IMG/VR virus record: IMGVR_UViG_3300021373_000958
Coordinates: 1-53,515 of that record
Strand: one strand, 5' to 3'
Length of the DNA stretch: 53,515 bases
Source of the DNA: a virus
Taxonomy: Duplodnaviria; Caudoviricetes
Part shown: in pieces, positions 1-48,956 of the stretch
Position numbering within the stretch: position 1 is the stretch's first letter
Layout of the letters: each line of letters opens with the position of its first letter
Translations under genes and position numbers: made by a program
Notes under the pieces: model-generated
Database searches by the model: none
What the model was told of the DNA's origin: nothing
Seen by the model: only the letters and a program-made list of their open reading frames with translations

Positions 1-1041
1 CCTATTCTGGGCGTAGTATGTAGTGCTCGTATTATTTAGAGTGTCATAAGATTCAGGTGACCACTTAGCACCAGATGTTTGACCAGTAATTACTTCAGCG
101 GTAGTGAAGGTTCCTGTTCTGTTGATGACCTGTAGAGATCTTGTAGTAGCATCCCAGGACTTGACTTCTGCTCTGTTGTCTTTTGGCGAGTAGTCGATTG
201 TAACGGTAGGTGCTGAAGTATACCCAGAACCACCGTTAGTGATAAGGATGCCAGTAACAAGACCAGTCGAACTAACTGATGCTGTGGCTGTTGCTCCACT
301 TCCTCCGCCTCCTGAGATTGTAACTGTAGGTGGTAATGCAGAATTGTAATGCAATCCACTATCAGTAATGGTGATGCTATCTACAGCATCTCCATCTGTT
401 GTTGCTGTCGCCTTAGCAAGGAACTCATCGCCAACAACTTCCTCACCAACAACAAATGCTCCTGTGCCACCAGGATCCATAACAAGTTTGATGGCAGCGC
501 CAAACTCCAGTTCAATATCATCAATCTCTTCAACACCTGTCTCAAAGGTATCGCTACCGAGTTCATAGAGTTCACAAGTTAATATGTAGAATTGGATCTT
601 GCCAAACTGGAAGAATGGACTTTCTTTCTCTACAAACTTGATCTCGTAGATGTCTTGTGTTAGTGGGAAGTAAAGAAGGTCTCCTTCATTAGGTCTTCCG
701 TCATAAGTTAGAGTTGGTTGCTCTGCTGCTACTACCTGATCCCAACGTCTAGTTGAGACACGGAATACAACCTCGTCTGTAATTTTCAATCCAAACTTAC
801 TGACAAACTCTGCTCCGTCAGCAAATCCAGTTACATTTTGTAGAAGCATCTCAATCTGAAACTGCTCCTGATACTTTGAATATCTTACCTCTTCAAGAGT
901 ATTATCTTGAAGCATAGTTCTAGGCAGATAATAGATATCTGTTCCGAACAATTTAATTTGCTCGTCAACTAGATCCTGGTAGAGGTTTTGCTCTCCAGGA
1001 TCTCCCTGATAGTATGTTGGAAAGTAAGGACTAGTAGGCAT
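1..1041 (-). CDS. gp14: T4-like neck protein gp14, 3' end runs off the window
   Basis: Manual translation from ATG at 1041: MPTSPYFPTYYQGDPGEQNLYQDLVDEQIKLFGTDIYYLPR...FVSKFGL...RPNEGDLLYFPLTQDIYEIKFVEKESPFFQFGK; directly follows gp13; not in the ORF track because it is open at the edge. Confidence 0.9.
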   Translation of the reverse strand, partial: MPTSPYFPTYYQGDPGEQNLYQDLVDEQIKLFGTDIYYLPRTMLQDNTLEEVRYSKYQEQFQIEMLLQNVTGFADGAEFVSKFGLKITDEVVFRVSTRRWDQVVAAEQPTLTYDGRPNEGDLLYFPLTQDIYEIKFVEKESPFFQFGKIQFYILTCELYELGSDTFETGVEEIDDIELEFGAAIKLVMDPGGTGAFVVGEEVVGDEFLAKATATTDGDAVDSITITDSGLHYNSALPPTVTISGGGGSGATATASVSSTGLVTGILITNGGSGYTSAPTVTIDYSPKDNRAEVKSWDATTRSLQVINRTGTFTTAEVITGQTSGAKWSPESYDTLNNTSTTYYAQNR

Positions 1042-1042
1042 C

Positions 1043-1843
1043 TTATCCGATCATATCCATAGGTGGAATAGCATACTTGCTGAGAACTTCGCTTTCGATT
1101 TTCTCAATTTCTGCTAGTGCGTCTGTGTAGAGTTCTCTGCCGTTGAGGGTGATACCACCAGGCAGTTGAACATTGTTGAACTTGATTAGGTTCTGACCCC
1201 ACTGCTTCTTCATCAGAGCAGTAGCATATCTCTTCACGAACATATCATTATACATTTCAGTCGCATCTGTAGGATCGATGAGACGATGTGCTTCAATCAA
1301 GAGCCAGGTATCCTCTTTGAGGAATGACTTATTGATGTCAAGATACAAACGATCACGACGCATGGTGTATCTGAACTGCTGGAATGATCCATTGTTGAGG
1401 ACCATATCTAGAGTTTCTAGATACTGTTTATTCATATAGTAGTTGAGGATATCAAGTGATCCAAACGCATACAAGTCGTTCAGGAACAACTGATATTCAA
1501 CACCAAAAAGGTTTGAACGAATTGAGTTGCTGACTAGACCGAATACTCTGGTGACACCTACAACATGATCTGGAATGGGAATATAATTTGTCGCCTCTTC
1601 CCAGTTCGTAGTTCCAGATGATGTGGTATCTTCACCATCAAATCTTGTTAGATCATCAGCATTGATTTTGTGTCTTAGGTATGCTCTCTCCATACCATTG
1701 TAGCAGTTCTCTTGGAAGAACTGGATGGTATCGTCAATAACATTGTTTACCTGTTCGTCGTCAATATTAACTTGGAGGACAGGCTCACCAAGCTGCCTCT
1801 TACAGTAAGTGATAAGATCAGCCCTAGAACTTGGAGATGCCAT
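1043..1843 (-). CDS. gp13: T4-like neck protein gp13
   Basis: MASPSSRADLITYCKRQLGEPVLQVNIDDEQV...KRYATALMKKQWGQNLIKFNNVQLPGGITLNG, typical gp13; ATG at 1843 preferred over the 1852 start. Confidence 0.93.
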   Translation of the reverse strand: MASPSSRADLITYCKRQLGEPVLQVNIDDEQVNNVIDDTIQFFQENCYNGMERAYLRHKINADDLTRFDGEDTTSSGTTNWEEATNYIPIPDHVVGVTRVFGLVSNSIRSNLFGVEYQLFLNDLYAFGSLDILNYYMNKQYLETLDMVLNNGSFQQFRYTMRRDRLYLDINKSFLKEDTWLLIEAHRLIDPTDATEMYNDMFVKRYATALMKKQWGQNLIKFNNVQLPGGITLNGRELYTDALAEIEKIESEVLSKYAIPPMDMIG

Positions 1844-5505: not shown

Positions 5506-8500
5506 TCAAATGACTGTCCAAGTTCCACCATTGCCAATGTATACGGTGATGTTACTATTAACCGTAATTGGACCATAACTACATGCGTTTAGTGTTGTTG
5601 GAATTGTGAGGTTTTCGGCAATAGATTGTCTGTTTGCCTTGACAACACCATAAGTATCCAACCACTGACGATCGCCATTAGCATAGAGAACGTTGTTATT
5701 ATTGTTGGAGTTATTTCCGAGAGAAGTGCTTCCAAATGATGCAGTATATGTTCTGAAAGTCTTAGCGTAAATGTTACCAGTATTGGCATCAATATCTCCA
5801 CCAAATACCGCTTGGTTATTTGTTAGGTTGAGATACAATGGCCATCTGCTATTAGCAACTTGAGTCCATGCGCCTGTAGAAGCATTTGTAGCACCGCATA
5901 AGAAATACATCAAGTTGGAATTGACATGAATGTATCCTGATCTATTGTTGGTATCTCTAAATGTGATAGTTGGAGCAGTTCCAGTCATCATGATACCATC
6001 ACTGTTACCAGTTAGTCTTGCAACACCAGCAGTCAGAGTTGCTGTATTAGAAGAACCAAGATATAGGTTACCACTGTTATCCATGTAACCAACATTGCTT
6101 CCACCTCTTCTAAATCTTACAACCTCGGTGCTGTTAGAACCAGCGTTGATATACCATCTGTTTGAGTGATACTCAAGTTTACCAACTCCAGATCCAGCGT
6201 CACCACTCCAAGTGGATGTAGAAGTTTGAGTAATTCTAGTGCTATTACCAGTCAGAGAAATGCTACCAGTTAGAGTTACATTTCTTGCACTTACAATATC
6301 ACCAGTACCAAGTGTTAGAGATGTTCCAAAAATTCCACCAGCACCATTAACTCTAAATGTCTCAGCGTCATTACCTCTAACTTGTATAGCGTAGGTTGCT
6401 CCAGATCCAACATCAACTTTAAGACCATATTCATTCGCGCTACCATTATATTTGTCAACAATCAGACCCCAATCATTGTTGTTGGTTGCTGTGATGTATA
6501 CCGTAGCATCATTTGTTGCACTAGCAGTTCCACCATTGATTACTACCTCTGGCGATTCAATTCTTCCAGTAAATGTAACTGTATTGGAATTATATGGATA
6601 TTGGAATACTACCGTATTAGTTCCGTTATCTTTTCTATAGAATGCAATTCTATCAGCGAGTTCACCAGAAGAGAATGTAGGTGAACCATCACCATTATAT
6701 GCAAGACCACCACCGTAAGTAGATGACTGACCAACATAGAGATATCCAGTTCCCTGTGAGTTACCATATGCTTCAAAACCAGCGTTGTTGGAATCATTCG
6801 TTAGGACACGAACAAATCTTCCCGAACCAGTAGCAGTGGAACCAACAGTCAGGTTACCAGTCATGGTATCGCCAGACTTCAGGACGTTCAGAGAAGCAGC
6901 ACCAGTTAGAGATGCAGTAATGTTGTTAGCAGCAAAATTACCACTACTATCTCTGATTACAGCGGTTCCGTTTGCAACGCTACTGTTATAAGATCCACTA
7001 GATAGTCCAACCTCAAAAGTAACGTTACCTTCGTTCCAAACTTTGTTATTGTTTAGTGTGAGACTGTTTGGATCAAAAGCAGTAATATTCAGAGATCCCT
7101 GACCAGGATTTCCTGCTGTTCCACCACCAGTGGCAGTAATTGAAACATCAAATGCATTACCATTACCACTAGATCTGAACAAGATCTCTGGAGAACCAGA
7201 TACTGCAGAAGCACCAAGGGTTAGTGCAGCTTGTCCACCACTACCAGTTAGTGATGCCAACTCATAAGTTGTTAGAGTTGCTGGTGTGTAGTCATCAAAT
7301 GGAACGTTAATTGAGGCGGTTCCAATTCTGATAGCACCAGAAGCACCAAATCCACCGTTATCAAGTCGTACTCTTAGAATAGTGTAATGTTCGGTGGGAT
7401 CTGTATTAGTATCATCTGTGATTACATTGAGAACATATACCGTTCCAACACCTTGCGAATCGCTATCATATAGATTGATTGTTTCATTAATTAAGAATGG
7501 GAAAGTGTTTAGAACTCGTCCAGAAATATAAACATCAAAAATTGAGTTTCCAGAATAGTTTTTGACACTTAGTGTTTCATAAATGTGAGTGTTATCAAAC
7601 AACTCTGGCATATGAGAAGCACCAATTCTTCCGAAATTGATATTTCTTCCATTTTGATACCAAGTTCCTTGCTTACCATCAAGAACATCAGCATCTAGAC
7701 CAGATCCAACACCATCATTTCCATCATGCCACAATAGTCTCCAATCAGACCATTCCGAAACACCTGCTCCAGATCCACGCAACCAAAGATTGTTTTTATC
7801 GGTAAACGCTAACTGTCTTACACCACCACCAGTATCATCATTAGAAGTATCTCCAAACTGACGGAAAGTGATAACACCATGATATCCGCTGTCTGGATCA
7901 TCTGGTCTAGTTGGATCTGCCAAACCATCTGATAAATTAGTCTTCCAAGCGGATGTGATACCAACATTAAATGTATTTGGCAATCCGCTGTTTCCAGAGT
8001 TTAGTGTCTGAGTATTCAGACGAATTGTGTTACCAGACTGACCACTGATAGAGATGCTGTAAGTACCACTACCAAGTTTTGATGGTCCGATACTAGAATC
8101 GATGAAGTATTGACCATCTAAGTAGTAGTTACCATGCTGACCATCTAGTTTGTCAGCATCAAATCCAGATTCTGGTCCCTGGTCAATGTAAACACCACCA
8201 CCAGAAACAAATCTAAACTGACCAATTCTTCCAGTTGCTGTATCTGATTTGAGGAAACGAACGATACCAGCATTACCATATGGATCAGCATCAAGAGTTT
8301 TATCATCAACTCTTCTAATGTCCATTCCAATAACGCCACTGTTTTTAACAGAGTTAGCAACTTTAGCTGCAAGAACAAGACCGTTACCAGTGCCAAGAAT
8401 AGTTGGGTTTGGAGAAATTGTATAATCGTCAGTGAAGTTTGATCCTCCATCTGTTACGATAACGCTGGTAACACCACCATTAGTAACAACGATGTTAGCG

Positions 8501-11500
8501 AAACAGTCCGTTCCAACTCCACCAGAAGAAACGTCAACACCAAAGTATTCACCATCGGTGTATCCATTTCCAGGGTTGGTAATTACAATCTTATCAATAT
8601 AATTTACTTTTACGTTAGAAGCATCAAATACTAGTGGAGAATCTGGTCTGATAAATTCAACAACTGCCCCAGAAGGAACGCTAGATTGAATTGGTGTACT
8701 TAGCGTAAGTGTTGCTTCGCCGTCTGCTACAACAATTTGAGAAATTGTGGTATCTTCTGCAAAATATGATCCAGGAACTAACTCATGACCAATCAGTAAC
8801 TGACTATCGGCATTGAAAACCAATTGCTGTGATGGAGTATTTGAAGCGGAAATCGTCTTGAGGAAGTAACGATTTTCTAGTGCTTTGATAGTCTGAGTTA
8901 CTGGTTTATATGTTTGATCACCAGCAAGGAATGTAAAGGAAGATGCAGCTCCATCACCAAGCAATGTCGTAGACATCTTGCCAGGACCAGTGATATTATT
9001 AACAGCAACTGATGTTGTAGATAGAGAAACCCAGTTATCAATATCTTGTGCTGAAGTATTGACAACACGTAGAACATTTACTAGATTTGGAGCTGGGGCG
9101 TGATCTTCAATATTATCTGTATCTTCAATCTTGATATTGTTGACAATATTTGCATAAACACGAGATTCAATTAATGAATTAGCGGAGGCAGTTGTTCCAC
9201 CAGCACCAGGAGCACTGAAGCTAATTCCTGGTGCCGTTGTATAACCTTGACCACCAACATATCCAGCATTCTCTGTGATAGTAATAAGAATTACTTTTCC
9301 ATCAGCGATAGTTGCTGTTGCTGTTGCCGTAGTTCCTGAGGCAGGAGCTGCAATACTTACTGTTGGAGCAGAAGTGTATCCAGAACCACCATCTACAATT
9401 TGAATTTCGTATACTACACCTTCAACATAATCAGTAACTTGTTGAATACCTCCAGTGATATCACCTGTCAGAAGTTGACCATTAGTAAATACAAGAGTAG
9501 GATCAACATTAATTCCGAGATAAGAACTTGTTAGATCATTTTCTAGAATGTATGATGTGTTAGTATCACCTTGAATTGCGATATCACCCGCAAGTGGACC
9601 TTCTAGAGAAAGTCTTTCTGCTTCATCAGCAACCGTATAGATGCTGAATGGTCTTAGTGCTGGGATCTGGTCTAGAGAGATCTTACCACTATCGGTAAGT
9701 TCAACCAGTGCTCTAGGAACTGCGCTAGTTGAATATGGTTTGTTTAGATAGGGACCGAGGTTGTTTCCAATGTAATCCTTGACTGCCTTCTGAGTTGAAA
9801 TCAGTGAGTTGCTGGAGAATGCTCCACCAAGGTCATTAGCAGCAGAGAAACCTGTAACAACAACGTCACCACCTTTCAATTTGAGGAATTCAACTTCGGA
9901 GATCGAAACCGTTCCAGTAAAGGTAATGTTACCAGTTCTGTTTTCAATCTTTGCGAACGTTCCAACCTTAAAGTCTCCAAGTTCGTCAGTTCCAGAAACA
10001 TAAACACGACCATAGTTTTCAGAAACCTGTTCGTATCCATCAATCTTAGTTCCGCCGTTTTCTGGTAGAGCATTATAGTCTGTTCCAGAACCAGCATATT
10101 CCCAAGTGTGTGAAGAGGAGTTAACGATAGATGGTCTGTGAAGTCTAACCTGTGTGCCAACCATTGTGGCATCATCTACGTTAAGAACTGGAGTTTGAGT
10201 TGCTTTATCCTGAATAAGAATAGGAGCGTTCAGTGAGAGAGATGCTGTGAAAGGAGGACCAACAGTTACAGAACCTACACTATCAACAAAATACTCAATG
10301 TTAGGATCTTGGTTCTCAAAATCTGCAAATTTTACAACATAGTGCTCAAGTGGTTCTCTTCCAAGACCACCAACACGAAGAATTGTGCTACCGTTTGGAG
10401 TAATGTTTGTGCTTACAACCGTTCCAATGTCGAACGAATATGCTTCATCTCTGTAACCAGTTGCTCTCAGAGCATAGATACCGAAGTTAGTAGCAGAGTT
10501 AGTAATAGAAGCATAACCACCAGATTCTGCGAGAACACCATCTTTAGCAAATAGAACGAATACCGAAACCAGCTGGGTGTATCCATCGTTAATGATCTTA
10601 TATCCAGTTCCGTTGAATGAAACAATGGTAAACTGTGCAGCAACCATGGATTTACCCTGGTTGGGAGTTTCTGCATTGCCGTTAGCGTCTAGACCTGGGA
10701 ATGGACAGTTTGGTTGCTTAACCTTACTACCATCGATTTCGCAACCACCACCACCTTTAAAGGAAATAACAGAAGCGTTTTGAATATATGGAGATGCTTC
10801 AATAATAGGAAGATCCATATATGTTGATAAAATATTGACACGTTTTTGGTCAATATCATACATTGAAAGTTCTGGAACGTTTAAAATGGAATCTGTATTG
10901 TATAGAGTTCCGTAAGTTTTTGCAGGTGGAGTTCCACCTGCAAGAATATCATCTACTGTTTGGAAAGATGTTGTAATGGTTGAGACAACATCAGCACAAG
11001 TTGGTGTAGTAGTATCTTCGGTGACAGTTGAATCTGTATACAGAGGTAAGATGGAATACAGTGGTTGGTATACTGGCTCTGAGTATGCACCAGTTCCAGT
11101 ATGCCAATTTCTTACTGCAAGAATACAAAGATCTCTTACCTTCTCAAAGGCATATCTTGTAACAGGAAGTTCTGGTTGAGAAATGCCAGTAAGAACTCCT
11201 CCAGTGAAATATGCTTCAGCGGAGGTAACCATACCAGAGTTACCACCCAGAACCATGTCTCTTCTTAGAGATTGGAGAATGTAACCAATATCTCTCTTAC
11301 AGACATTCTCACCTACTACATAATCTCCATAGTTAACCGTTGGGAGATTGTTGAGGTTTCCATTGGATACAGCATCTGTAATAACACCAACTAAGGTGTC
11401 GATTGCTGCTCTAACATTTGCACAAGAGTTAGGATCTGTGTTGGATCCAGTTGCGGGATCTGCGGTAATTGTTAAGTCAGTTACAGTTAACTGGTTTGTA

Positions 11501-14496
11501 ACTGCTTGCTTCATCAAATCTCTTGCTTTATTAAAAGCAGTGATAGATTCCGCTTCTTCTCCAACTAATCCATTACTGATTGGATTTCCGCTTCCATCAA
11601 AGTAATATTTTGTAGCAAGAATAATATTTGAGTTGCCGCCATTATAAAGATCGTTTGCAGTCGCTTTTACAATATACCCGATATCACGCTTGCATTTTAC
11701 AGGATCTGGATTTGTAAATGTTGGATGAACAATAGCAATTTCATCATATGCAGTGTCTACAATTTCTGTAAAGTTGGCGTAGATTAGATTTCTACCATCC
11801 TTAAATCTGTGTCCATCTGTATCGACATTATCATCTGGAATATAGAAATCTGGGAATTGAGTTGATACGAAACCAATTGTTTCTTCGAGAATTAACTCTT
11901 CATTTCTAGCAATCAACTCAGATGCATCTAGATACCTATCAGCAGCGTTATTAGTGATAACATCAACGAATAAGTAACCTAGAGTATCAATCGCAGCAAC
12001 AACATCTGCACAGGTAGCAGATGGTCCTGGTGTGAATGTGCTGTCCTCAATTACAGAAGTGTCTGTGTAATACGAAAGTGCCGAATATTCTGGGGTATAT
12101 TGTGGTTCTGAATATAAACCAGAACCAGTGTGCCAGTTTCTTACAGCAAGTTTACACAAATCTTTTGCGATTTCAAATGCTCTTACAGTTTCTGTAATTT
12201 CGTTACCAATGTATCCAATTTGTGTTCCTGAGACATAACGGTTTGCAGCTTCAATAACATTAAAGTTGCTGCCAAATTGTAAATCCTGAACGATAGAATA
12301 TACAAAGTGTCCAATATCTCTACGACACTTATTTGGATCTGGTTGGGTAAATGTCGTGAAGTTTACACCGTCAAACTCATCTGTGACTTTAAGATAAGTT
12401 TCGTCCTTAATAAACTCAACGTTATTCTTGATTAAGTTTGTAGCATCTTGCCATCTTCTTCCGAGTGATGGAGTTGCTTCAAAATTATTTGGTGAGTTTA
12501 GAAGTGATACTAAAACATAATGGGAATATCCTCTAACATTTACAGCAACTGGAACAAAGTTTGAATCGGTAAATGATGGAAGTTTCTTTGGAATTACAAA
12601 TCTTCTTGCGCGACCATCAGCATCTTCAATAATCTTATAAATTCTCTGAACACCGTTTAGTTCTGCTAGATTTCCTACCAATCCAGTGATAAGGACTTCA
12701 GATCCTTCTTTAAAATCATGAGTATTTGCTCTACCAGTAATTGGGTTGGTGTAGAATACAATACCACCAAGATCATCGTCTCCACCAAATCCACCAGTAA
12801 ATGTTCCCTGTAGAGAACCATCAATTCTGGTAATTGAAATTGGAGTTCCTGGCTCTGTTCCATGGAATACAACTTCGCCTTCCGCACGAATAGATTTTAG
12901 GTCGTTAGAAACAAATTCGTATGTTGTGATGTTTGGATCTGTTCCAACATCATATTGGTAAATATCAGCAAAGTTGAATGCTCCACTGACAACTTCAATA
13001 TCAACAGTACCTGTTGTATATCCATCAGGCGCTTCCGTGGAATCGTATGTAACACCGATCACAGTACCAATGGCACTACTGTTAACACCTTGAACTGTTG
13101 CTCCAATTGTTAAGAAAGAACTAACTGGATCTCCTCCAACAACTTCAATACCAGTATGATCCTGGAACGTAATTCTAAACTTTTGCTTACCAAAAATTTG
13201 GTGACCGATTGGGAAGTTTCTTAGGAAATCTCCACCAGCAGTTGGTTCGTAGTAAAGTCTTTGCTTATCGTCAAAAGCAACAGCGAAATCCCAAGTTTCG
13301 TCTGCTCTTCCTTCTGAATCTAGTTTATCTCTAAAGACAATTCCGCTAATATAGTTCTTGTCCGCAAACTTGAACATGTGTTTGCGAGGATTTTTTGGTC
13401 TGATAATTACCAGACGTAGGTTATCACCAACAACTGAACAATCGGGTGGAATTGAAATTGGGTTATCTTCTGAATAATCGCCACCAGAAATAATAACTGT
13501 TTCCTTTACACCAATAGTTTCGGTAGCGATCTGACATGCTCTCTTAATTGTTCTTACAGGAGTTGCAGCAGATCTACCTGTGTTTACGTCATCACCAATT
13601 TCTTGTGAAACATAAACACGACCACCAACGTCATTGGTTGCTAGATTGAGAACATATTCTGTAGTAGCAATTCTGTCTGATCTATCTCCTAGAGGTGGAG
13701 TTACAGATCTTGGATATACAGTTTGACCATAAAATGGTTTTTCTTGATCGTCAACTCTATAACCAATATGCTTTAGAGTTACTTCTCCATTAATATCCGA
13801 TCCATCTTTGAATAGTGGAGCATTGGTTCCTGTTCTACCAGTATTTTCTACACGATATACATTATCTCCAAAATATAGATACGTATCTTCGGGGTAAGTT
13901 GTTGAGGCTTCCCAAATACTTCCAGCAGCATTTGAGTAGATTTTTAAGTCTGGAGCCCTGAAGTTGATATCTGGAGTAACAAAGTTTTCAATATCAAGGT
14001 TTAAAATTCTTGCAGTATCAGAAATAATAGACGTTGATGTTCTGATAGCACCGTTAACGTCGAGTTCATAATCTACGCTGTCCAAAAACGCAGTTGCAGA
14101 AGCACCAACGCCACCTCCACCAGATACTGTAATTGTTGGTGGAGTAGAATAACCAAAACCAGGATTGTCAACAGAAATGCTACTTACTGCTTCTCCCAAA
14201 ACATTAGCAGTTGCTGTTGCTTGAACGCCAAGAATAGGATCATCTGGAGCGGAGATAATTACATCTGGGACAGAAGTATATCCGCTACCCGTGGTATCAA
14301 CAGCAATTGATTCTAGTCTTCTACCAGTTCTATTAACACCAACTCTAGGCAGTTTACTAGTAGGATCAATAAGGAAACGCATAATTTCCTTTTCATCTGT
14401 TCCAGCACCAGAACGGACTGTCAAGTCATCTGAACTAGCAATTTTTAGATTTGAAGACCTAAGCTCCTGCTTGTCGGCATTAAATTCTAAACTCAT
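5506..14496 (-). CDS. giant (2996 aa) tail fibre/tailspike-like virion protein with beta-helix, helical CxRD repeats and fibre repeats
   Basis: G/T/S/N-rich; GSGY..P.V repeats; YVS..GDD..G.S...P.RTI.RA beta-helix cap; DADKLDG/DADVLDG and VLKSGDTMTGNL fibre motifs; C-terminal GPITV...TWTVI; ATAAATA at 14536-14542. Confidence 0.8.
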   Translation of the reverse strand: MSLEFNADKQELRSSNLKIASSDDLTVRSGAGTDEKEIMRFLIDPTSKLPRVGVNRTGRRLESIAVDTTGSGYTSVPDVIISAPDDPILGVQATATANVLGEAVSSISVDNPGFGYSTPPTITVSGGGGVGASATAFLDSVDYELDVNGAIRTSTSIISDTARILNLDIENFVTPDINFRAPDLKIYSNAAGSIWEASTTYPEDTYLYFGDNVYRVENTGRTGTNAPLFKDGSDINGEVTLKHIGYRVDDQEKPFYGQTVYPRSVTPPLGDRSDRIATTEYVLNLATNDVGGRVYVSQEIGDDVNTGRSAATPVRTIKRACQIATETIGVKETVIISGGDYSEDNPISIPPDCSVVGDNLRLVIIRPKNPRKHMFKFADKNYISGIVFRDKLDSEGRADETWDFAVAFDDKQRLYYEPTAGGDFLRNFPIGHQIFGKQKFRITFQDHTGIEVVGGDPVSSFLTIGATVQGVNSSAIGTVIGVTYDSTEAPDGYTTGTVDIEVVSGAFNFADIYQYDVGTDPNITTYEFVSNDLKSIRAEGEVVFHGTEPGTPISITRIDGSLQGTFTGGFGGDDDLGGIVFYTNPITGRANTHDFKEGSEVLITGLVGNLAELNGVQRIYKIIEDADGRARRFVIPKKLPSFTDSNFVPVAVNVRGYSHYVLVSLLNSPNNFEATPSLGRRWQDATNLIKNNVEFIKDETYLKVTDEFDGVNFTTFTQPDPNKCRRDIGHFVYSIVQDLQFGSNFNVIEAANRYVSGTQIGYIGNEITETVRAFEIAKDLCKLAVRNWHTGSGLYSEPQYTPEYSALSYYTDTSVIEDSTFTPGPSATCADVVAAIDTLGYLFVDVITNNAADRYLDASELIARNEELILEETIGFVSTQFPDFYIPDDNVDTDGHRFKDGRNLIYANFTEIVDTAYDEIAIVHPTFTNPDPVKCKRDIGYIVKATANDLYNGGNSNIILATKYYFDGSGNPISNGLVGEEAESITAFNKARDLMKQAVTNQLTVTDLTITADPATGSNTDPNSCANVRAAIDTLVGVITDAVSNGNLNNLPTVNYGDYVVGENVCKRDIGYILQSLRRDMVLGGNSGMVTSAEAYFTGGVLTGISQPELPVTRYAFEKVRDLCILAVRNWHTGTGAYSEPVYQPLYSILPLYTDSTVTEDTTTPTCADVVSTITTSFQTVDDILAGGTPPAKTYGTLYNTDSILNVPELSMYDIDQKRVNILSTYMDLPIIEASPYIQNASVISFKGGGGCEIDGSKVKQPNCPFPGLDANGNAETPNQGKSMVAAQFTIVSFNGTGYKIINDGYTQLVSVFVLFAKDGVLAESGGYASITNSATNFGIYALRATGYRDEAYSFDIGTVVSTNITPNGSTILRVGGLGREPLEHYVVKFADFENQDPNIEYFVDSVGSVTVGPPFTASLSLNAPILIQDKATQTPVLNVDDATMVGTQVRLHRPSIVNSSSHTWEYAGSGTDYNALPENGGTKIDGYEQVSENYGRVYVSGTDELGDFKVGTFAKIENRTGNITFTGTVSISEVEFLKLKGGDVVVTGFSAANDLGGAFSSNSLISTQKAVKDYIGNNLGPYLNKPYSTSAVPRALVELTDSGKISLDQIPALRPFSIYTVADEAERLSLEGPLAGDIAIQGDTNTSYILENDLTSSYLGINVDPTLVFTNGQLLTGDITGGIQQVTDYVEGVVYEIQIVDGGSGYTSAPTVSIAAPASGTTATATATIADGKVILITITENAGYVGGQGYTTAPGISFSAPGAGGTTASANSLIESRVYANIVNNIKIEDTDNIEDHAPAPNLVNVLRVVNTSAQDIDNWVSLSTTSVAVNNITGPGKMSTTLLGDGAASSFTFLAGDQTYKPVTQTIKALENRYFLKTISASNTPSQQLVFNADSQLLIGHELVPGSYFAEDTTISQIVVADGEATLTLSTPIQSSVPSGAVVEFIRPDSPLVFDASNVKVNYIDKIVITNPGNGYTDGEYFGVDVSSGGVGTDCFANIVVTNGGVTSVIVTDGGSNFTDDYTISPNPTILGTGNGLVLAAKVANSVKNSGVIGMDIRRVDDKTLDADPYGNAGIVRFLKSDTATGRIGQFRFVSGGGVYIDQGPESGFDADKLDGQHGNYYLDGQYFIDSSIGPSKLGSGTYSISISGQSGNTIRLNTQTLNSGNSGLPNTFNVGITSAWKTNLSDGLADPTRPDDPDSGYHGVITFRQFGDTSNDDTGGGVRQLAFTDKNNLWLRGSGAGVSEWSDWRLLWHDGNDGVGSGLDADVLDGKQGTWYQNGRNINFGRIGASHMPELFDNTHIYETLSVKNYSGNSIFDVYISGRVLNTFPFLINETINLYDSDSQGVGTVYVLNVITDDTNTDPTEHYTILRVRLDNGGFGASGAIRIGTASINVPFDDYTPATLTTYELASLTGSGGQAALTLGASAVSGSPEILFRSSGNGNAFDVSITATGGGTAGNPGQGSLNITAFDPNSLTLNNNKVWNEGNVTFEVGLSSGSYNSSVANGTAVIRDSSGNFAANNITASLTGAASLNVLKSGDTMTGNLTVGSTATGSGRFVRVLTNDSNNAGFEAYGNSQGTGYLYVGQSSTYGGGLAYNGDGSPTFSSGELADRIAFYRKDNGTNTVVFQYPYNSNTVTFTGRIESPEVVINGGTASATNDATVYITATNNNDWGLIVDKYNGSANEYGLKVDVGSGATYAIQVRGNDAETFRVNGAGGIFGTSLTLGTGDIVSARNVTLTGSISLTGNSTRITQTSTSTWSGDAGSGVGKLEYHSNRWYINAGSNSTEVVRFRRGGSNVGYMDNSGNLYLGSSNTATLTAGVARLTGNSDGIMMTGTAPTITFRDTNNRSGYIHVNSNLMYFLCGATNASTGAWTQVANSRWPLYLNLTNNQAVFGGDIDANTGNIYAKTFRTYTASFGSTSLGNNSNNNNNVLYANGDRQWLDTYGVVKANRQSIAENLTIPTTLNACSYGPITVNSNITVYIGNGGTWTVI

Positions 14497-19063: not shown

Positions 19064-22000
19064 TTAGAACGATGCTACTGCTCTGATATCTTGAACCTTA
19101 GGAGCGAATGCTGGGTCAACAGTCTTCATTACAATCTTAACAGCAAACGAAGAGAACTCAGGAAGATCTGCAACGCTATACTTCAATTCTTGATACGAAG
19201 ATTGTTTCTCAACAGTTCCAGAGATGCTGTTCTCACTGGATGCAATCTCTAGATTATCAGGACCTCCATCAGCATTGAAGTATTCCCAATCAATATCTTC
19301 GAAGTTTTCTTGACTGGATGCCTTCTTAAATCTGTAGAGAACTCTGATGTTTGAGATATCCTTGATGTTAGCGGTAAGTCTTACATCAATAGATGTTCCA
19401 GGATTGCCAATTGCAACCTCCTTAGTTACATACTTAGCAACCGCAGAACTGTTCTTTGAAGAATCTTCGGAAACAAAATCAATACCGTTAGAATATGTGA
19501 TGCTTCCAACTTCCAGATAAGATGCTTCGACATCATCCTGAGAAGCATACTTGACATAATCGCCAATACGGAAGATATCAGAAACTTGTTCTGAGGTCTG
19601 AGCATTTCTTGCGAATGCTACATTATCAATAATTCTTCCAGTAAAATCATTACTAATTGGTTGAGTGTCGGTTCTTAAGATTAACTCTTGTGTTTTGTTA
19701 TTCCAAAGAACTGATTTACCAGTAATCTTATTGTCATAAGTCTCAAGAATTACTGATGGATTGCGAGCAACGATAGTTGCACCATCAGCAATATCAAAGA
19801 ATAGTTCAACAGGATTTGAATCTACGGTAACGCTAGTGAGTGATGCTTGATTTCCAAGAGAAACAGTTTCTCCAATCTGGAAGAACTGTGCCGTCTTAAC
19901 TCTTACATAAACAACAGCACCATTTACTCTGGCAATAGTTCCAGATGCTTTTGTAGTTACTCCCTTGATAGTTTGACCTGCTTGGATTTCAGTTCCACCA
20001 TTTCCTGCAAGTTGGAATTGATAAACTGGATAGAACTTGATGATTTGATCTCTTCTACCAAATCTGTCTTCTTGACCGCTTGCGTTTTCAACTCTGGAAG
20101 TAGATGTCTTAACAGAAGCAGAAGACAAATCAATCAATGGCGATAGATTAGAAACTGTAGAAGTCATCACCATCTTATATGTCAATGACTGATTTAGACT
20201 ATTGAGGGTCTCATTAATCTCGGATGCGATCAACTTTTGATTGGTAAAGTATTGTGGTTCATTCAAGAAAGTTCTCTCATAGTCTGTCTGAGAATATGAG
20301 GTATAATTTGTCGTCGTAGAATCGACGGGAACTACATTAGTAGTCTTGACATAGTTCTCAAGTTTTGTTCCAGTGAATGAAAGGTAATTGACTTGAGGAT
20401 ATAAAGTTTCAAATTTTCTGTTGTGTGATGCATAAACATTAGTTCCACCACCAAATGCATTGCTAGAAGCGTTTGCAGTAGAAGTGATGTTGTATGTGTC
20501 AATACCACTGTTTGAAATCTTAAACAGGTTGCTGTTTAAGATGTCAGAGGTGACGCCTCCTGTCTCTTGTGCAGTCCTATAGAAGACATACGACCTACCA
20601 GATGTCTCAAATCCATGGTCTCTGTGTGAAACCTTAACGATAGAGTTGTTGTTCTTGAATAATTTTGAGGTGGCGTTAGTATTTGCACTAGCATTAGTTT
20701 CAAATGGATTGTAGTCAAGAAGTTCATAACCCAAGTTATCATTCTTAAGTAGAAGTTCTGCAGGTTTGCTGATGTCAAACTCTGCACGATATAGAGTGAA
20801 CTTGAGATCTTCAAAAATGTCTTCTGTCCAACTCTCAGTATTTTGAGACTTGTAAACAGATCCTAGTGATGGTTGAGTTGTAATAACAGTGCTGGTAGCA
20901 ATATCAGTAGCACCTAGTTTAGATGACCAGAGCATATAGTCGGTAGAATCTGTTTCTACAACTAGAGCATACTCACTATCATTTTGTAGGTATACAGGAT
21001 ACTCAAATCCAAAGTATGTTGGGGTTGTGGACTGCGTAACTCCTTCGTTATCGACCGCTACGCCCATTCTAACTGCAGGTGTGTCAATCTCAATAAAGGT
21101 TTGGATTTCGCACCCTCCAGCGCCATTTCCGACGCCTCTGACAACGACTGAAGGAGCTTCTGTATATCCAAAACCAGATAGAGAAACTTCAGCATTGTAG
21201 ATTTTACCACCAGAGACTTTGATTGCTGCAGTAGCGGTAGATCCACCAGGAAGTTGTGGACTTTCGATAGTTAGGATTGCACTATCATAGTTTTGTCCTG
21301 GGTTAGTAACTCTGACCTTAGAGACTTTTCCACTATCTTTTGCAATCGTAATCTTTCCAGTGGTTCCCTGAGTAGCATTTGCTGTAGTTACAGATGGAAT
21401 AGTTAGATCTTCATTCTGAACGAACGACTTACCATTGTGATTGCTTAGAACGAAAGTATAAACTTGCTCGTTTGTGAGACTATACTTACCAGATGAAGTT
21501 GCTACCAATTCAACGTTATTTTTATCAAAGATCTTGAGAATAGGTCCAGAAGCAGCAGAACTTACTCCTGTAACATTTTCTCCCTTGTAAACAGCAACAT
21601 CGCCATTCGCATAACACTTGAGAAATGTATTAGGTGATAGAACCTTCTCGGATCCAGGAACAACATTCTTTCCTGGTTTCTCTGCATCTACATTGGTGAG
21701 GTATGCTTTAATTGGAATATTGCTGCTCTTCTTGCTGAAGTAGAGATCAACACCAGTTACAAAACATCCGCCCTCTAGATTTTCAACTTTAAATGTCTGT
21801 GCTAGTGGGTTGGGTCTTACTGGATTATCAGTGTTGCTTTCAATTAACTGAACACCTTCATTTGACTTGAAGTATGAAGGTTTCGTAGATACAATAGTTC
21901 CTGGGTTCTCTGGAAGAATACCCGTGGCATAGTATTTGACCTCGGTATAACTATCAACTTCATCCTTAGGTGCATTGGTAGCACTAGAAGTAAATCTGAA

Positions 22001-25000
22001 GGTTAGAATACCAGAAGTGATTGATACTTCTTCTGCATTTGTATCATAAGATAAAGTATCTACGCTGCCGTTCCAAGTAGCATTTTCGATTGGTGGGAAA
22101 CCAGCAGGAAGAACAATCAAACCAGATGCATTTCCATATTCATCAGTGGTGATTGGACCATTAAATGCTGATAGTGAGTTACCTGCAAGACCAGTAAATC
22201 TTAGATCGGGATTTACCCAACGACTGATGTCTCTTCCCTCTAGGAATACATACATCTTAGTATTGGGTTTCATTCTTCTAATCACATACTTAACGGGAAC
22301 ACTTCTCGCAAAGAATGATAGTGAATTGGAAACAAGACTTCCTCTTACGTTCTTGGTTTGGACACCTTTACCAACATCATTATTTTGTGGACTAATATTT
22401 GAAGAACTGGAAACAGATGCAGACTGAACCTTTGTAGATGCCTGCTGACTATTAACCTCACCTAAAGAATTAATTGAAGTAAATGAAGGTGAAGATCCAA
22501 CCCAGTTAACTACAAATGAGTTGTGAATGCTGGAGAACGCTTCCTTAACATTATCTTTTGCCAAGAAAATATTAAAGAGACTTGTGTTTGTATCGACAAC
22601 TAGTGGTTCTTCATTTTGATCATACCACTGATCAATTGATGGGGACAGTTCACCATCTCCAACATACTGAAGAACAACAAATGGGTTTGGATTAATCTTT
22701 GTTGATGCAAACTCATTGCCAAGTAGATTTAAGTTTGAGTATGGTAGAGTGACAACATTGTTTACTTTCTTATAACCAGAAACTGCTCTCTGATCTTCTC
22801 TTACATTAACTTCGACTAGTTTAATGCTATCTTCTTTCGACTGTGGACGAAGAACTGATTGCTGAGGATCAATAGCACATGCATAATCAAGTGAGGTCAA
22901 ATTACCAACGCTATGTGCCTCAAAATTATCAACAAAGAAACCAGACTTAAATCTGTCTAGACCAACTTCATCCTTGACCTGCATGTTGAGAGCTTGCTGC
23001 TCAAGGATGCTAAGAGTAGTGTAATACTCAAGACGCTCAATACGCTTCTCCAATTTACCGATATCTCGCATAGTATAGCGACGATTATCAACTGGAGTAA
23101 TTCTTACATCCTTGCTAGTCTTAGTGAAAGCAGGAATGTACGCATAGAATAGAGGAACCGCATCTTCAATAGGATCTGGTTTGGATGGGTTGAGAGAAGA
23201 ATTCCCTTCTTTTACTAGGAACTCTCCTTTCTTGTTAAGGAATACGCCATCAATACGATCTAGATACTGGATTTGACTGAAGGAGAAAGTATACTCAATA
23301 CCAGCATCTGGAGCAGGAGTGCTAGAAACAACAGCGCCAGGACCAGCAAATGCTCCCTCGGTAACTTCTAGTAGCGACTTATCTAGATAACCTGGGATGA
23401 TTGCTGTGGTGTCTACCTTAGGTCTAAAATCAATTACATTTTTAAGTTCTACATTACCAAGAACAGGAGAGTTGAAAGAAGGAATTTCATCTTCAGGAAC
23501 ACCTGCTTCGTGTAGGTAACTGTCAATTGTGCAGAAGTCTCCTTGAGATTGCTCGAAATAATCAAAAGCAATAACAAGTTGTCCTACAGATGCTTCAAAT
23601 CCTGGTTTGAGAACTAATCTTGAAACATCATATACGGTGTCTCTTTGACCGTCATCAAATGTATATCTAGAAGTAACATCAGTTCCAGAAACCAGATTGC
23701 CAGCAGTATCAACGTCTGGAGCTTGTGAAGGAGTTCCTTCATAGACATATCTTAGTTTGAAGACATCGGAATATGAGAGGGTCTCGATAACTTCAGTATC
23801 GTAATCAGATCCTCTAAGAGGAATAACTCGGTCACCAGATGATGTAACAACAATTCTCTTATTTCTTACAGCAGTCTTAAGTCTTGGTTTTGCGTTAGAT
23901 ACTTCTAGAGTTGCGGTTAACTTAAGTTTAGGGAACGCACCATTAGAAGGAATAGTTCCAAAATAATCAGATGTTAGTTGTAGACTAATAGATCCAGAAG
24001 TAAGACCACTGGCAGTATCAGTAGAAGATGAGATTTCTACAGCATCTGTAGGAATATAAATGATATCACCCTTTGCAATGCTTGGAGCATCGCCTGGGTC
24101 AAGAACTGTAATGATATAATTTTCTTCTGTGAATGCAGCAAATCTTTGTGTTCCAAATGGCAACTGTGCTGCAAATGTAATCGTTCCACCAGAAGTGGAA
24201 GCAGTTGTTACAAAATCTCTGCGGAAATAATACTTAATCTTAGTGTCATCACCACCAGCAGAAATTTGCTCTACTTGCTTACTGCCAGTTGGGAATAGAA
24301 GGGTTCCACCATTAGTATTGTCTGGTCTAGGTCTTAGACGAACAATACTTGTATTTGTTACATCACCAGGAAGAGCTGTATCTAGATAAATTCTAGTCTT
24401 AGCAACCCCCGCTGCTTGAGTTGCATACTGAACAATGGCACGAACTAGATTGTTATCCTGGTCAGAGAATTGAATTAGATCTCCCTGCTGAACAATGCTA
24501 GAGGCATCGGCGCTGAAACTCGTTGATTCGACAAACATCGTTCCTTTCTTGCCGAAGAAAGTGTAATCAGTTACAGCGGAGATGTTTGAATATGATTGAT
24601 TATCTACAACTAAATCAGCACTAAACTTATTGCTACCACCAGAACCATACGCACCACCAATAGATTTGACATTCTGTGGTGTATATGTAGTAACAGCATT
24701 TCTAACTAAGACAGCACGGACAGCAGCAGCACCTGCGCTATCGGTAGTTCCAGCAATTACAATTTCTGGTGGTTGGGTGAATTCTAAGTTTCTGAGAGCA
24801 GCTTGGTTATTGATTGCTACTTTATAGATTTTACCGCCATAAACAGTTGGTTCGATCTTAGACGAATCATACTCAACACCATTTAATAAGATGGTAGCTC
24901 CAGCAGAATAACCAGATCCTCTCTCGATAACAGTGAAGTGTGAGATAGTATTATCTTTTGCAATCTTTACTGTATTTGAATCTTCATCTCTGATTGTTTC

Positions 25001-32100: not shown

Positions 32101-35100
32101 CCCAATACAACTCAAATTCTTTAGTTTCACCATCAATATAATCTGGGAGTGTTCTGGTAACTGCCTCTTGCTGTAGAATATCATCAACGTTTGAAGTCAA
32201 AGAATCGACAGAAGAAATTACATCATTACACTCTTGTGCTAGAAGTAGAGGATCACCAATAATATTGTAATTAGAATAGGTTAGTGTCTGTGACCAGTTA
32301 CCTGCCTTATTTGGATTTTGGTTTGTTTTACTAACTAGACCCTTACCCTCAGATAGAATTGTGTCAACAATACTATTGTAAGTGTCAAGGGCACTTTCTA
32401 CTTCAGCGCAGAAAGGACTTTGACTGTCAACCAGAATATTGTTGTCAACGACTGGTGTAATAGCAGTATAAATTCCAGCACCAAGAGTGTTTCTCATTGC
32501 TTGGATCATCAAGTTTTTTGCATACTCAAATGCAGCAAGACTTTCTGTTAGTTCATTGTTGATGAATAGTAAGTTCTCGGATTCTGGATATTTTGCTTTT
32601 ACATAGTATAGTTGTCCAAACTCAACAACTTTTTCATTTCCACCGAAACGGAGATGATAGACATATGCATCCACTAAGAAACCAAGATCTCTTTGGCACT
32701 TAGTTCCTTTTGAATTCCAATCAACACCAGGATATGTTGCTTCTGCCCATCCAATAGTTTCTTCTTGAATATATGCTTTGTTTGCTGCAATTAAATTAGC
32801 AGCATCATAGAAAGTGCCGTTGTTAATGCCACTCCATGAGAACGTTGCCTGATCAGTTCCAGAGAAGGATACGGGTGCAGTAACTGTAAAGCCAGGAGGA
32901 ACAGAGAAAGTATTTCCAGGAGCAACTGCACCTGTGTTGGTAGCAAAGGATCCTCCAGTTGCTGTTCCACTCAACAAAGTGGTTCCTGCTGGAGCTCCGC
33001 CGCCACCTGAAGAGTTTGATAATGCACTGTTATTTAAAGTGACTTGTGTTGCACTGTCAATAGAAACAATGTAAGTTCCAGATGGGAATGCTCTGCCAGA
33101 ACTTACAAACATACCAATAGCGAGGTTCTCAGTATCAGTGACATTCATAGTTCTAGAACCTTGAATGTATATTACACTGCTGTCTGTGTAATCCCAGTTT
33201 CTAATGGCAAGTTTTGCTAGTCTTGCTGCATACTTAAAGATACCAGTAGATTGAGATCTATTGTTTTGAATGTATAGATAATCGCTATCTGTGTTGAAGA
33301 TGGAAGTGTAGTCTACAGTTTTAATGTTTCCACCAAATCTAAGATCGTGCTCATATGCATCGAGAATAGAACCGATGTTTACTTCATAATCATCTTGCTT
33401 TGTGCTCCAATCTAAAGATGGATATGTTGCTTTTGCATATCCGATAGTTTCTTCGACAATGAATTGACGATTTCTCTCAACCTGATTAGCAGCATCTAAC
33501 CACCTACCATTACGTTGGAAAATGTTTCTAATTTTCTTGAAGTATCTTGCATTATACTGATTATCTTTAAATGCAACATACTTTCCATAGAAAGTAACAC
33601 CATTATAATATGTAATATCAGACTGTCCTTCACCAGTTTGTTTCTGATATGGTCCAAGAGGTGGTTGACTGAAGATGATACGATCACCAGATACAGTGAA
33701 AGCAACTCCTGGTTCTTGTAGTACACCATCTAGACTAATTACTAGATTTTTGTCACTATATGGACTAAATGGAACTCCGCTGTCATTTAAAATCTGGAAT
33801 GATGTTGTTCCCTGCAATCTGCCATCGGTATCATAGTATCCATCGAAAGGAGCATCAAGTGATACTTCAAACGCACGCATTTCATTGAACAAGAACTCAC
33901 TAGTAGCAGCAGAACCAAATCCTCTACGAATTCTTTGATTTTCTACCTTTTGAACAATCTGCGTAACAGTTCTAGTAGTGTTCTCTACAGTAATTTTATT
34001 TTTTGCAGGATCCCAAAGTTGAATAATTGAGAAATGAGATGCTTTTGGTGTTTCTGCTGGCATCTCAACTGGTGCCGTCGCCTCAACATCAACTTGACCA
34101 AATAGTTTAAATCCAGCGGGGTGAGTTGTGGACTTAATTAATTCACGCCATTGACCAATGGGTGTCTTGGATTTTACAACATATGAGTAGTCTTGATAGA
34201 AGAAACTATCCAAGATCTTCTGATTTGATACTCCAAGTTTTCCTCTGTCGGACTTGAAATATCCAATGTTGTCATAGAAACCAGTGATTTGTTCTGCAAA
34301 TGTGCTTACAAAAATTGCTTTGATTGTCGCAGATACTGGAGAATTTAGAGACTGGACAGTTTGATTTTCTCTGAAGATACCTTCTACATCCTCCACCTTC
34401 AATAAGTTCGAACCAAATCTCCATTCAGATACTCTAGCACGAGCGACTTCAGTAGATCCAATTCTCTGAACTACAATTTCACCTTTACTAAAATCTCCAT
34501 TGAAGTTGGAAAGTGATAAAACTGATTTGGTATTAAATGTCGATGCTACTGTTCTATCTCTATGGAATGCACCTCCATTGTTAACAATAGAAATACTTCT
34601 CGGAATACCAACAGTTTGACTTTCTGCAAATGCTTCAACATCACTTTCGACAATAGCAACTTCTGGAGCAAAGGTATATCCAACACCAGGATTATCAATA
34701 GTAATGGAGAAAATCTCCCCATTTCTTACAACAATTTTAAACTTCGCATCAACACCATCACCATTGGTAATAATAACTTTTGGATTTACATAATTTGATC
34801 CTTTCTCGTCAATTCTAATACCAACAATAGTGCTGGTAGGAATATCAAATAAAACAGTAGCAGAAGCTCTGAAGTTTTCATTTGAATCTACGCCGCTAAT
34901 TGCTGGAACTTTTTTGTAATTTAATCCTAGATTTGTGATTGCAAATGAATTGATTTCACCAATAGCGAACTGACCAGTAGTAGTATAAGAAATGGATCCA
35001 GAACCATCCCAAAGAGGCTCGCTATTAATATCATAAACAAAACGAGTTGGGGTAACATAATTGAGAGTTTTTACTCCTTGTAGTGGGTCTGTAATTATTT

Positions 35101-48331: not shown

Positions 48332-48426
48332 TTGAATCGTTTAATTGCGTCTTTTACTGGCCAAGTGTATTCTAGTGTTGCTACTAGAAGAATAGTGAAT
48401 GAGAGAACAAAGAATGTACTAATCAT
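48328..48426 (-). CDS. tiny membrane peptide (32 aa)
   Basis: MISTFFVLSFTILLVATLEYTWPVKDAIKRFK; ATGA overlaps at both ends. Confidence 0.55.
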   Translation of the reverse strand: MISTFFVLSFTILLVATLEYTWPVKDAIKRFK

Positions 48427-48956
48427 AGTGCTAGATTAAATGAGAGGGCGATGCGTTCTTCATCAGTAGTAGAGAAATATACTCTGTGTCTAAGTGATGC
48501 AGGGAACATTAACATTTGCCCTTCTACTGGTGTGAACTTATAGACAGTGTAATAATTATACTGTTGTTGTAGTTCTGGTTTGAATGAATTGATTGCTTTG
48601 TATTGTGCGAAGCAATCAGGATGTTCAAACTCTAGTGGTGCTGGATCTGGTGGTAGTTTCAACCATAATACACCTGCCCAATCATTTCTTGGATGTTGGT
48701 GTGAGTAATTACCTTGTAGATTAGTATTGACCATATACCATGCTAGTGATGAAGTATATGGGAATGGAATATATGGTGAGAGTAGATCAGGTAATGGTTG
48801 ATAGTTAGAATGCCATCCACCCATATTAGATGCTTTCATTCCTTTGGTATCTTGTTGTCTGAGTTTGTTTAATTCAGGCAATAGATCTTTGTAGTTTGGT
48901 ATTTGGAATTGTAGCACCATTGTAGGGAACAATGGGATGGCATTACATTCAATCAT
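48423..48956 (-). CDS. putative 2OG-Fe(II) oxygenase (TIGR02466-like)
   Basis: PLFPT...SNMGGWHS...NYSHQHP..WAGVLWLK...PVEGQMLMFPASLRHRV....ERIALSFN. Confidence 0.85.
   Translation of the reverse strand: MIECNAIPLFPTMVLQFQIPNYKDLLPELNKLRQQDTKGMKASNMGGWHSNYQPLPDLLSPYIPFPYTSSLAWYMVNTNLQGNYSHQHPRNDWAGVLWLKLPPDPAPLEFEHPDCFAQYKAINSFKPELQQQYNYYTVYKFTPVEGQMLMFPASLRHRVYFSTTDEERIALSFNLAL

Follow-up and report, generated by a model that had tools for sequence, protein, structure and literature searches.

Does the particle of a phage contain a remade fold of a host photosynthetic protein, and could that fold hold a bilin pigment? This question is raised by the gene for a 2996-amino-acid (aa) tail-fiber-like virion protein bearing phycobiliprotein (PBP)-like domains, which lies at 5506..14496 on the minus strand (assigned from the open reading frame (ORF) list and its translation) of IMG/VR virus record IMGVR_UViG_3300021373_000958. 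We analyzed all 53,515 nucleotides of this stretch of DNA, referred to below as the window; the virus record consists of the window alone and is estimated to be 28% complete. An original prediction, made before the analysis reported here, had described three helical repeats with a CxRD motif in this protein and had proposed that PBP/globin-fold domains are built into the virion. A profile-to-PDB search, a profile-profile comparison and the predicted fold all agree with that proposal, and we consider it near certain that all three repeats have a globin fold and are homologs of PBPs.

Three related domains in a tail-fiber-like protein

The window comes from the structural module of a T4-like cyanomyovirus, and Pfam matches in it include a neck protein, gp8, gp6 and gp25. 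Among cultured phages, its closest relative is Synechococcus phage S-WAM2 (Kyanoviridae), in which the gene order is identical. The 2996-aa protein matches the PHROGs family phrog_5342 'tail fiber protein' (E 0), and the syntenic counterpart of its gene in S-WAM2 carries the annotation 'tail fiber-like protein'.

Three interrelated helical domains of ~170 aa are found in this protein, each with a CxRD cysteine; these cysteines are residues 724, 935 and 1066, and their codons lie exactly where the original prediction had placed them. Domain 1 is contiguous (aa 679-850; 11947..12462, minus strand) and matches the family hidden Markov model (HMM) over positions 1-172 with E 1.6e-68. Its motif is KCRRD, with the Cys724 codon at 12325-12327 and the codon of the second cysteine, Cys829, at 12010-12012, on the minus strand. 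Domain 2 begins directly after it with two helices, the equivalents of A and B (aa 851-894; 11815..11946, minus strand), a piece that matches only positions 2-36 of the HMM (at 11836-11940, E 2.3e-5). Inside the B-E loop of domain 2 then lies domain 3, which is complete (aa 895-1062; 11311..11814, minus strand; HMM match 1-171, E 4.6e-37) and has the motif KCKRD, with the Cys935 codon at 11692-11694 and the second Cys1025 codon at 11422-11424 of the same strand. The C-terminal part of the split outer domain 2, comprising helices E to H (aa 1063-1186; 10939..11310, minus strand; HMM match 28-170, E 2.6e-36), carries the motif VCKRD, with the Cys1066 codon at 11299-11301 and the second Cys1167 codon at 10996-10998, again on the minus strand.

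Domain 2 is thus interrupted by the whole of domain 3 directly before the outer cysteine, a domain-in-domain insertion that is one deep. For this last repeat, the CxRD motif and the second cysteine are present as predicted, but the repeat is split around the complete domain at 895-1062. A second cysteine, within CADV or CANV, had likewise been expected at the end of every repeat and is found at aa 829, 1025 and 1167. In single BLASTP comparisons, domain 1 (679-850) matched domain 3 (895-1062) with E 1e-24, the C-terminal part of domain 2 (1063-1186) with E 1e-30 and the N-terminal piece of domain 2 (851-896) with E 5e-5; judged by these alignments, the repeats of the 2996-aa protein are related far beyond chance.

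Sequence relationship to phycobiliproteins

When the 507-aa region of the repeats was searched against the PDB with phmmer, phycocyanin alpha chains accounted for six of the seven matches at E≤10, the best having E 0.0099. As a single-sequence search for relatives returned only seven close ones, an alignment was used as the query to widen the set. The alignment analyzed below, A2, comprises 34 copies, namely the two contiguous window copies and 32 full-length IMG/VR copies with less than 80% mutual identity. A PDB search with its profile gave 80 matches at E≤10, the best with E 1.4e-5, and the 60 of these that were listed are all PBPs or bilin-binding fluorescent proteins built from PBPs. Positions 5-62 of the profile pair with PBP residues 38-101, and both the phmmer and the profile alignments place the CxRD cysteine at the alpha-84 site. 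In a Pfam scan of the 34 members of A2 at E≤10, PF00502 was found in 10 (best E 1.3e-4) and any other family in one member at most.

For a direct comparison with hhalign, we used four real CpcB and CpcA sequences from the Acaryochloris marina plasmid pREB3. Alignment A2 matched these with a probability of 95.5% and E 1.4e-8 over 123 columns, at ~15% identity to CpcB. The alignment begins at CpcB residue 37 and places the first cysteine (C46 of the domain) on CpcB Cys82 and the second (C151) on CpcB Cys153. The proposed identity of the CxRD cysteine with a Cys84-type bilin site is therefore borne out by its alignment with Cys82/84.

Predicted fold and classification

The AlphaFold (AF2) model of domain 1, obtained with A2, has six helices and was predicted with a local distance difference test score (pLDDT) of 87.4 and a predicted template modeling (TM) score of 0.87. 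The model is globin-like, and among the matches listed by Foldseek there were PBPs only (best E 6.5e-4, TM score about 0.6), the outcome expected from the original prediction. A structural search covering 48,161 representative chains (VIA-align) gave phycoerythrin beta as the top match of the domain 1 model, with Z 16.0 and a root-mean-square deviation (rmsd) of 2.5 Å for 147 residues (chain 32-184), followed by the bilin domain of ApcE, 4xxi_A, with Z 14.2 and an rmsd of 2.0 Å for 115 residues. The top eight matches are PBPs or ApcE (Z 16.0 to 11.5), and sensor globins come next, at Z≤11.2. Look-alikes of domain 1 in the ESM Atlas were capsid-family clusters only, with scores of 0.88 or less; these fall below the reliability line and were disregarded.

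Counterparts of helices A, B, E, F, G and H are present in the domains. Both the AF2 alignment and hhalign place the start of the domain at the equivalent of helix A, and the N-terminal X-Y hairpin is absent; because this hairpin is missing, assembly into an (alpha-beta)3 ring would be unlikely. The domain is a new, distant variant of the PBP type outside PF00502: it scores below the curated value of that family and lacks the X-Y hairpin, and it has the fold and both cysteine sites.

Compared with PBP beta subunits (CpcB, CpeB), the phage domains share the globin-type fold over helices A-H, the K/A-C-x-R-D site where helix E begins and the second cysteine before helix H, at the Cys153 position in the G-H loop. 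They differ from these subunits by the lack of the X-Y hairpin, by a Pfam score under the cut-off and by an identity of only ~15%, as well as by a C-terminal half that is unrecognizable in sequence, by invariant residues of their own (D60, Y76) and by their occurrence as tandem or nested modules inside virion proteins of 3000 aa. The bilin-binding domain of ApcE, the core-membrane linker of the phycobilisome, offers another likeness, since it too is a PBP-type domain within a much larger multidomain protein. In ApcE, a large loop is inserted between helices B and E, bilin attachment requires no lyase, and the bilin-binding cysteine is at a position different from the canonical site. In contrast to ApcE, the phage domains have their cysteine at the canonical Cys82/84 position and have inserts of whole domains in the B-E loop.

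Conservation of the CxRD site across the family

Scanning 1.84 billion representative proteins with HMMER gave 666 proteins at E≤1e-3; the largest number of matched stretches in any one of them was 34. Using the family HMM, about 1560 copies were delineated in the best 150 of these proteins together with the window protein. Among the about 1465 copies that cover the motif in these 151 proteins, the cysteine is conserved in 98%, the arginine in 94% and the aspartate in 99%; for the same copies, the values for D60, Y76 and N66 are 98%, 99% and 82%, respectively. All three residues of the site are present in 1364 of the 1458 copies that have residues at every tested position.

Copies that lack the cysteine tend to lack Arg and Asp as well. 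Where the cysteine is present, Arg is found in 1364 of 1428 copies and Asp in all 1428; where it is missing, Arg is found in 18 of 30 and Asp in 23 of 30. Replacement of Cys by Ser, Thr, Ala or Gly (15 copies) left Arg in 14 and Asp in all 15, and replacement by Phe, Tyr or Trp (also 15 copies) left Arg in 4 and Asp in 8. Joint loss of Cys, Arg and Asp would be expected of residues that act together at a single ligand site, although the copies counted are related to each other.

Further copies of the domain are encoded in the window by the 3594-aa baseplate ORF at the gp7 position (29114-39898). The intact one (32351..32815, minus strand; HMM match 3-170, E 8.5e-38) has the motif KCQRD with its Cys codon at 32696-32698, and a second cysteine, that of FCAEV, with its codon at 32414-32416 of the minus strand, as derived from the FCAEV start at 32411-32413. 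The other copy is degenerate (33146..33541, minus strand; HMM match 3-126, E 1.6e-22): DYEVN stands in the place of KCxRD, the copy contains no cysteine, and all three site residues are gone. It follows the pattern of aromatic replacement, with Arg and Asp gone along with Cys, and it is also the site of a weak PF00502 match (13.5 bits against a cut-off of 22.2).

The second cysteine is missing from most multi-copy relatives in jumbo phages. The 72 proteins with at least 10 copies contain 1112 copies with 1013 motif cysteines and 1813 cysteines in total; in protein P0015, 23 copies have 27 cysteines, 23 of them in the motif, and in P0035, 18 copies have 21 cysteines, 18 of them in the motif. 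The motif cysteine is thus nearly the sole cysteine per repeat in several proteins, so that an intradomain disulfide cannot explain its conservation across the family.

Distribution in phages and relation to bilin genes

A tblastn search of 50,697 phage records with the 507-aa region matched 406 records, of which 405 are named as cyanophages (332 Synechococcus phage, 59 Cyanophage and 14 Prochlorococcus phage records, with the remaining one named 'Marine'). The 60 matched records that were listed, out of these 406, have genome sizes of 151-223 kb. In the T4-like Pelagibacter phage HTVC008M, the A2 profile had no match at E≤1; the same profile gave 19 matches in the positive control S-WAM2 and 8-17 in four jumbo contigs. 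These results speak against the possibility, raised with the original prediction, that the repeats occur just as often in phages whose hosts have no bilins. When one genome per species was scanned with the family pattern across 185,579 prokaryote species, none of the 41 candidates was confirmed.

Searches with P0009, a protein with 16 copies, returned 18 non-cyanophage tblastn records that were not counted as domain occurrences. Among the rows inspected, the sole one not named as a cyanophage was Roseobacter phage CRP-603, which matched only residues 9-88 at the N-terminal end of P0009; a row of an unclassified 'uncultured phage', which matched within residues 174-2878, was not counted as a domain occurrence either, and the Pelagibacter phage is without a match to the domain profile.

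Contigs of uncultured viruses, with lengths up to 382 kb, encode the multi-copy proteins. In the two jumbo records with 100% completeness, genes for a heme oxygenase and a ferredoxin-dependent bilin reductase are adjacent, and psbA and CpeT were not found. Among 30 contigs with a related reductase, the domain is present in 10, that is, in 10 of the 11 contigs with a completeness of at least 35% and in none of the 19 at 30% or less. In S-WAM2, CpeT (E 4e-42) and psbA are present, and a bilin reductase and a heme oxygenase were not found. P-HM2 has both a bilin reductase and the domain. As the original prediction had noted, the window itself is devoid of such genes: no member of the heme oxygenase, bilin reductase or CpeT families was found in 30 window ORFs scanned against Pfam, in a record that is 28% complete. 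Co-occurrence of the repeats with bilin genes is therefore seen in the jumbo contigs, with 10 of 11 at a completeness of at least 35%, but it does not extend to the cyanomyoviruses P-SSM2, S-PM2 and S-WAM2.

In one complete jumbo phage of 372 kb (L132; G002:C1:279000-292000), the pair of heme oxygenase and bilin reductase genes adjoins genes for CsgG, CsgF and a curlin repeat protein, as well as genes for FecR, RimK, Hsp20 and a DnaK-type Hsp70. Curli genes are not typical of cyanobacteria.

Light-dependent adsorption

Some of the phages compared above have been studied for their adsorption in light and darkness. According to Liu et al. (2019; PMC6628666), P-HM1 and P-HM2 fail to adsorb in the dark, adsorption of S-PM2 is confined to the light, P-SSM2 and P-SSP7 are able to adsorb in the dark, and the light-only adsorption of some cyanophages is independent of host photosynthesis. 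Taking the phages as classed there, the light-dependent P-HM2 and S-PM2 have 5 and 13 domain matches, in which the motif-spanning copies all keep the cysteine, and the dark-adsorbing P-SSM2 and P-SSP7 have none, a comparison of four phages that provides a lead only. Because P-SSM2 is a myovirus, the contrast in domain content and adsorption is not merely one of tail type.

Nesting and insertion into the B-E loop

Domains are nested more deeply in S-WAM2 and S-PM2 than in the window, with pieces in the order N,N,(N),full,C,C,(C), and the B-E loop before the cysteine is an insertion hot spot. We modeled the nested unit of the window (851-1186) with AF2, using a shallow alignment for the outer domain, and obtained a pLDDT of 75.2. 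Residues 40-200 of the model, which represent the inner domain, match PBPs with Z 12-15.7, and residues 1-336 give weak globin matches with Z about 6. In this model the inner domain clearly has the PBP fold, and a reassembly of the split outer domain 2 around domain 3 is suggested.

Five viral contigs (L001, L002, L006, L009 and L024) that are 92-99% identical to the window in domain 1 have one extra nesting level in the next unit, a level seen also in relatives with 98-99% identity in that domain; entire modules are thus gained or lost even among very close relatives. Many cyanophage copies (IMG/VR loci L025-L088, e.g. L029:2286-3059) have an insert of ~85 aa at the B-E loop before the cysteine, which looks beta-rich as judged by its sequence, and in some copies (e.g. 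L028, L041 and L075) the insert at the same loop amounts to ~500 aa.

Other genes of the structural module

Apart from its PBP-like copies, the 3594-aa baseplate ORF (29114-39898, minus strand) contains a YHYH domain (PF14240, E 1.2e-28) at aa 728-856. A 2694-aa ORF (19064-27148, minus strand) matches DUF4815 (E 3.4e-46), and its counterpart in S-WAM2 is annotated as 'virulence-associated structural protein'. The structural module is flanked by two putative 2-oxoglutarate-Fe(II) oxygenase genes (PF13759), at 2125-2721 and 48423-48956, both on the minus strand.

Discussion

The best explanation overall, to which we give slightly less than an even chance, is that the PBP-like domains in the fiber and baseplate receive bilin at their CxRD sites; whether a bilin is attached covalently to the phage domains we regard as evenly balanced. 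Bilin would join the sites during assembly in the cyanobacterial cytoplasm, where the first cysteine would form a thioether while, in the manner of PBPs, Asp would hold the pyrrole nitrogens and Arg would hold a propionate. Host S/U-type lyases could mediate attachment at the first cysteine, or it could proceed autocatalytically; attachment at the second could be mediated by a T-type lyase, either that of the host or the CpeT of the phage. The fiber and baseplate would then carry chromophores. More speculatively, the chromophore might stabilize the helical module or make the fiber light-responsive, which would be a possible basis of light-dependent adsorption.

A number of observations weigh against such a bilin-bearing fiber. 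Neither the whole 2996-aa protein nor its 507-aa region matches any Pfam family at E≤1, and the best six-frame PF00502 match in the window, at 13.5 bits, is under the curated cut-off of 22.2 bits. A profile built from positions 62-172, the C-terminal half, has no PDB match at E≤10, so that sequence similarity is limited to helices A/B and E. D60 and Y76 are near-invariant yet are not PBP features in the hhalign register, which points to a constraint of the phage family's own. The Fisher p values for the retention of the site residues, 7e-9 and 7e-13, overstate independence, as the copies are interrelated, and in P-HM2 the arginine is replaced by Asp in three of five copies. The T4-like cyanomyovirus P-SSM2 (NC_006883) has a bilin reductase and not a single match to the domain profile in its whole record, and S-PM2 has 13 domain matches with no reductase found; bilin synthesis by the phage is thus neither necessary nor sufficient for possession of the domain. 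As S-PM2 and S-WAM2 have many domains yet no reductase, Synechococcus phages would have to use the bilin of their host. The co-occurrence of domain and bilin genes in jumbo phages represents one lineage, and the adsorption comparison spans four phages.

Several of these points would be expected if a captured host PBP gene had become a rigid helical spacer, a ligand-free building block in which the Cys-Arg-Asp triad, D60 and Y76 form a buried polar folding network. We consider this possible, although well short of an even chance. The module is stacked and nested, with up to 36 copies per protein; D60 and Y76 are near-invariant, D60 even being kept in 29 of the 30 Cys-less copies; the window retains one Cys-less copy; the C-terminal half lacks any sequence signal of PBPs; and bilin genes and domain are uncoupled in P-SSM2, S-PM2 and S-WAM2. 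What a ligand-free spacer leaves unexplained is why exactly the three bilin-contacting residues are retained at 94-99% when overall identity is ~30%, why Arg and Asp decay after an aromatic replacement of Cys, and why a second cysteine sits at the beta-153 position. The cysteines by themselves might be accounted for by disulfides, either within a domain (Cys46-Cys151) or between chains or neighboring repeats, which would stabilize the fiber in oxidizing seawater. Both cysteines are indeed invariant in the 34 cyanomyovirus-type copies and in all three window repeats, but the motif cysteine is 98% conserved despite being the near-sole cysteine per repeat in many multi-copy relatives (P0015, P0035), and the two cysteines correspond, in the alignment, to two different bilin sites of CpcB. 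The Cys82 and Cys153 bilin sites lie far apart in PBP structures. A structural disulfide, which had been put forward as the main alternative in the original prediction, is weakened by the position of the second cysteine on Cys153 and by the near-sole motif cysteine of many relatives, and we now consider it distinctly unlikely.

The pocket might instead bind a ligand other than a bilin, for instance heme, a different tetrapyrrole or a metal, by analogy with sensor globins, and globin-coupled sensor and stressosome globin domains do match the model with Z 8-11. PBPs, however, match with higher scores (Z 11.5-16) and are its sole relatives at the sequence level; moreover, at none of the 172 columns is His, which would be the proximal heme ligand, one of the three most frequent residues, and no conserved heme ligand is apparent, so that another ligand appears very unlikely. 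The resemblance to host PBPs would also be the only support for mimicry, in which the domains imitate host antenna subunits and, during infection, bind a host factor such as NblA, a lyase or a linker, instead of acting in the free virion. With the X-Y hairpin that PBPs use for pairing absent, identity to CpcB at only ~15% and the domains located in virion fiber and baseplate proteins, mimicry seems barely plausible. Reception of bilin at the CxRD sites of fiber and baseplate remains the explanation that we prefer, at the strength given above.

Full-text literature searches, with subscription journals outside their coverage, found, among the papers listed, no prior description of PBP-like domains in cyanophage virions. 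A bolder reading, which we consider unlikely, would extend the bilin-bearing fiber to whole groups of viruses: virions of T4-like cyanophages and of the uncultured jumbo lineage would be chromoproteins that carry bilins made by the host or by the phage (ho1/pebS/pcyA), attached in part by the phage CpeT at the Cys153-like site, and their fibers would be light-responsive. If true, a chromoprotein virion would explain light-only adsorption, and the phage bilin genes, the role of which the literature has described as a mystery, would serve the virus particle no less than the host antenna. The presence, in fiber and baseplate proteins, of a pigment-protein fold whose attachment residues are intact provides a concrete candidate answer to the question of why bilin synthesis genes and a lone cpeT are found in cyanomyoviruses, tied to Sullivan et al., and to the question of why some cyanophages adsorb only in the light, tied to Liu et al. 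Even without pigment, the domains show a host photosynthetic protein fold remade as a nestable structural module of the virus particle, and whether that particle itself carries pigment is now a testable question.

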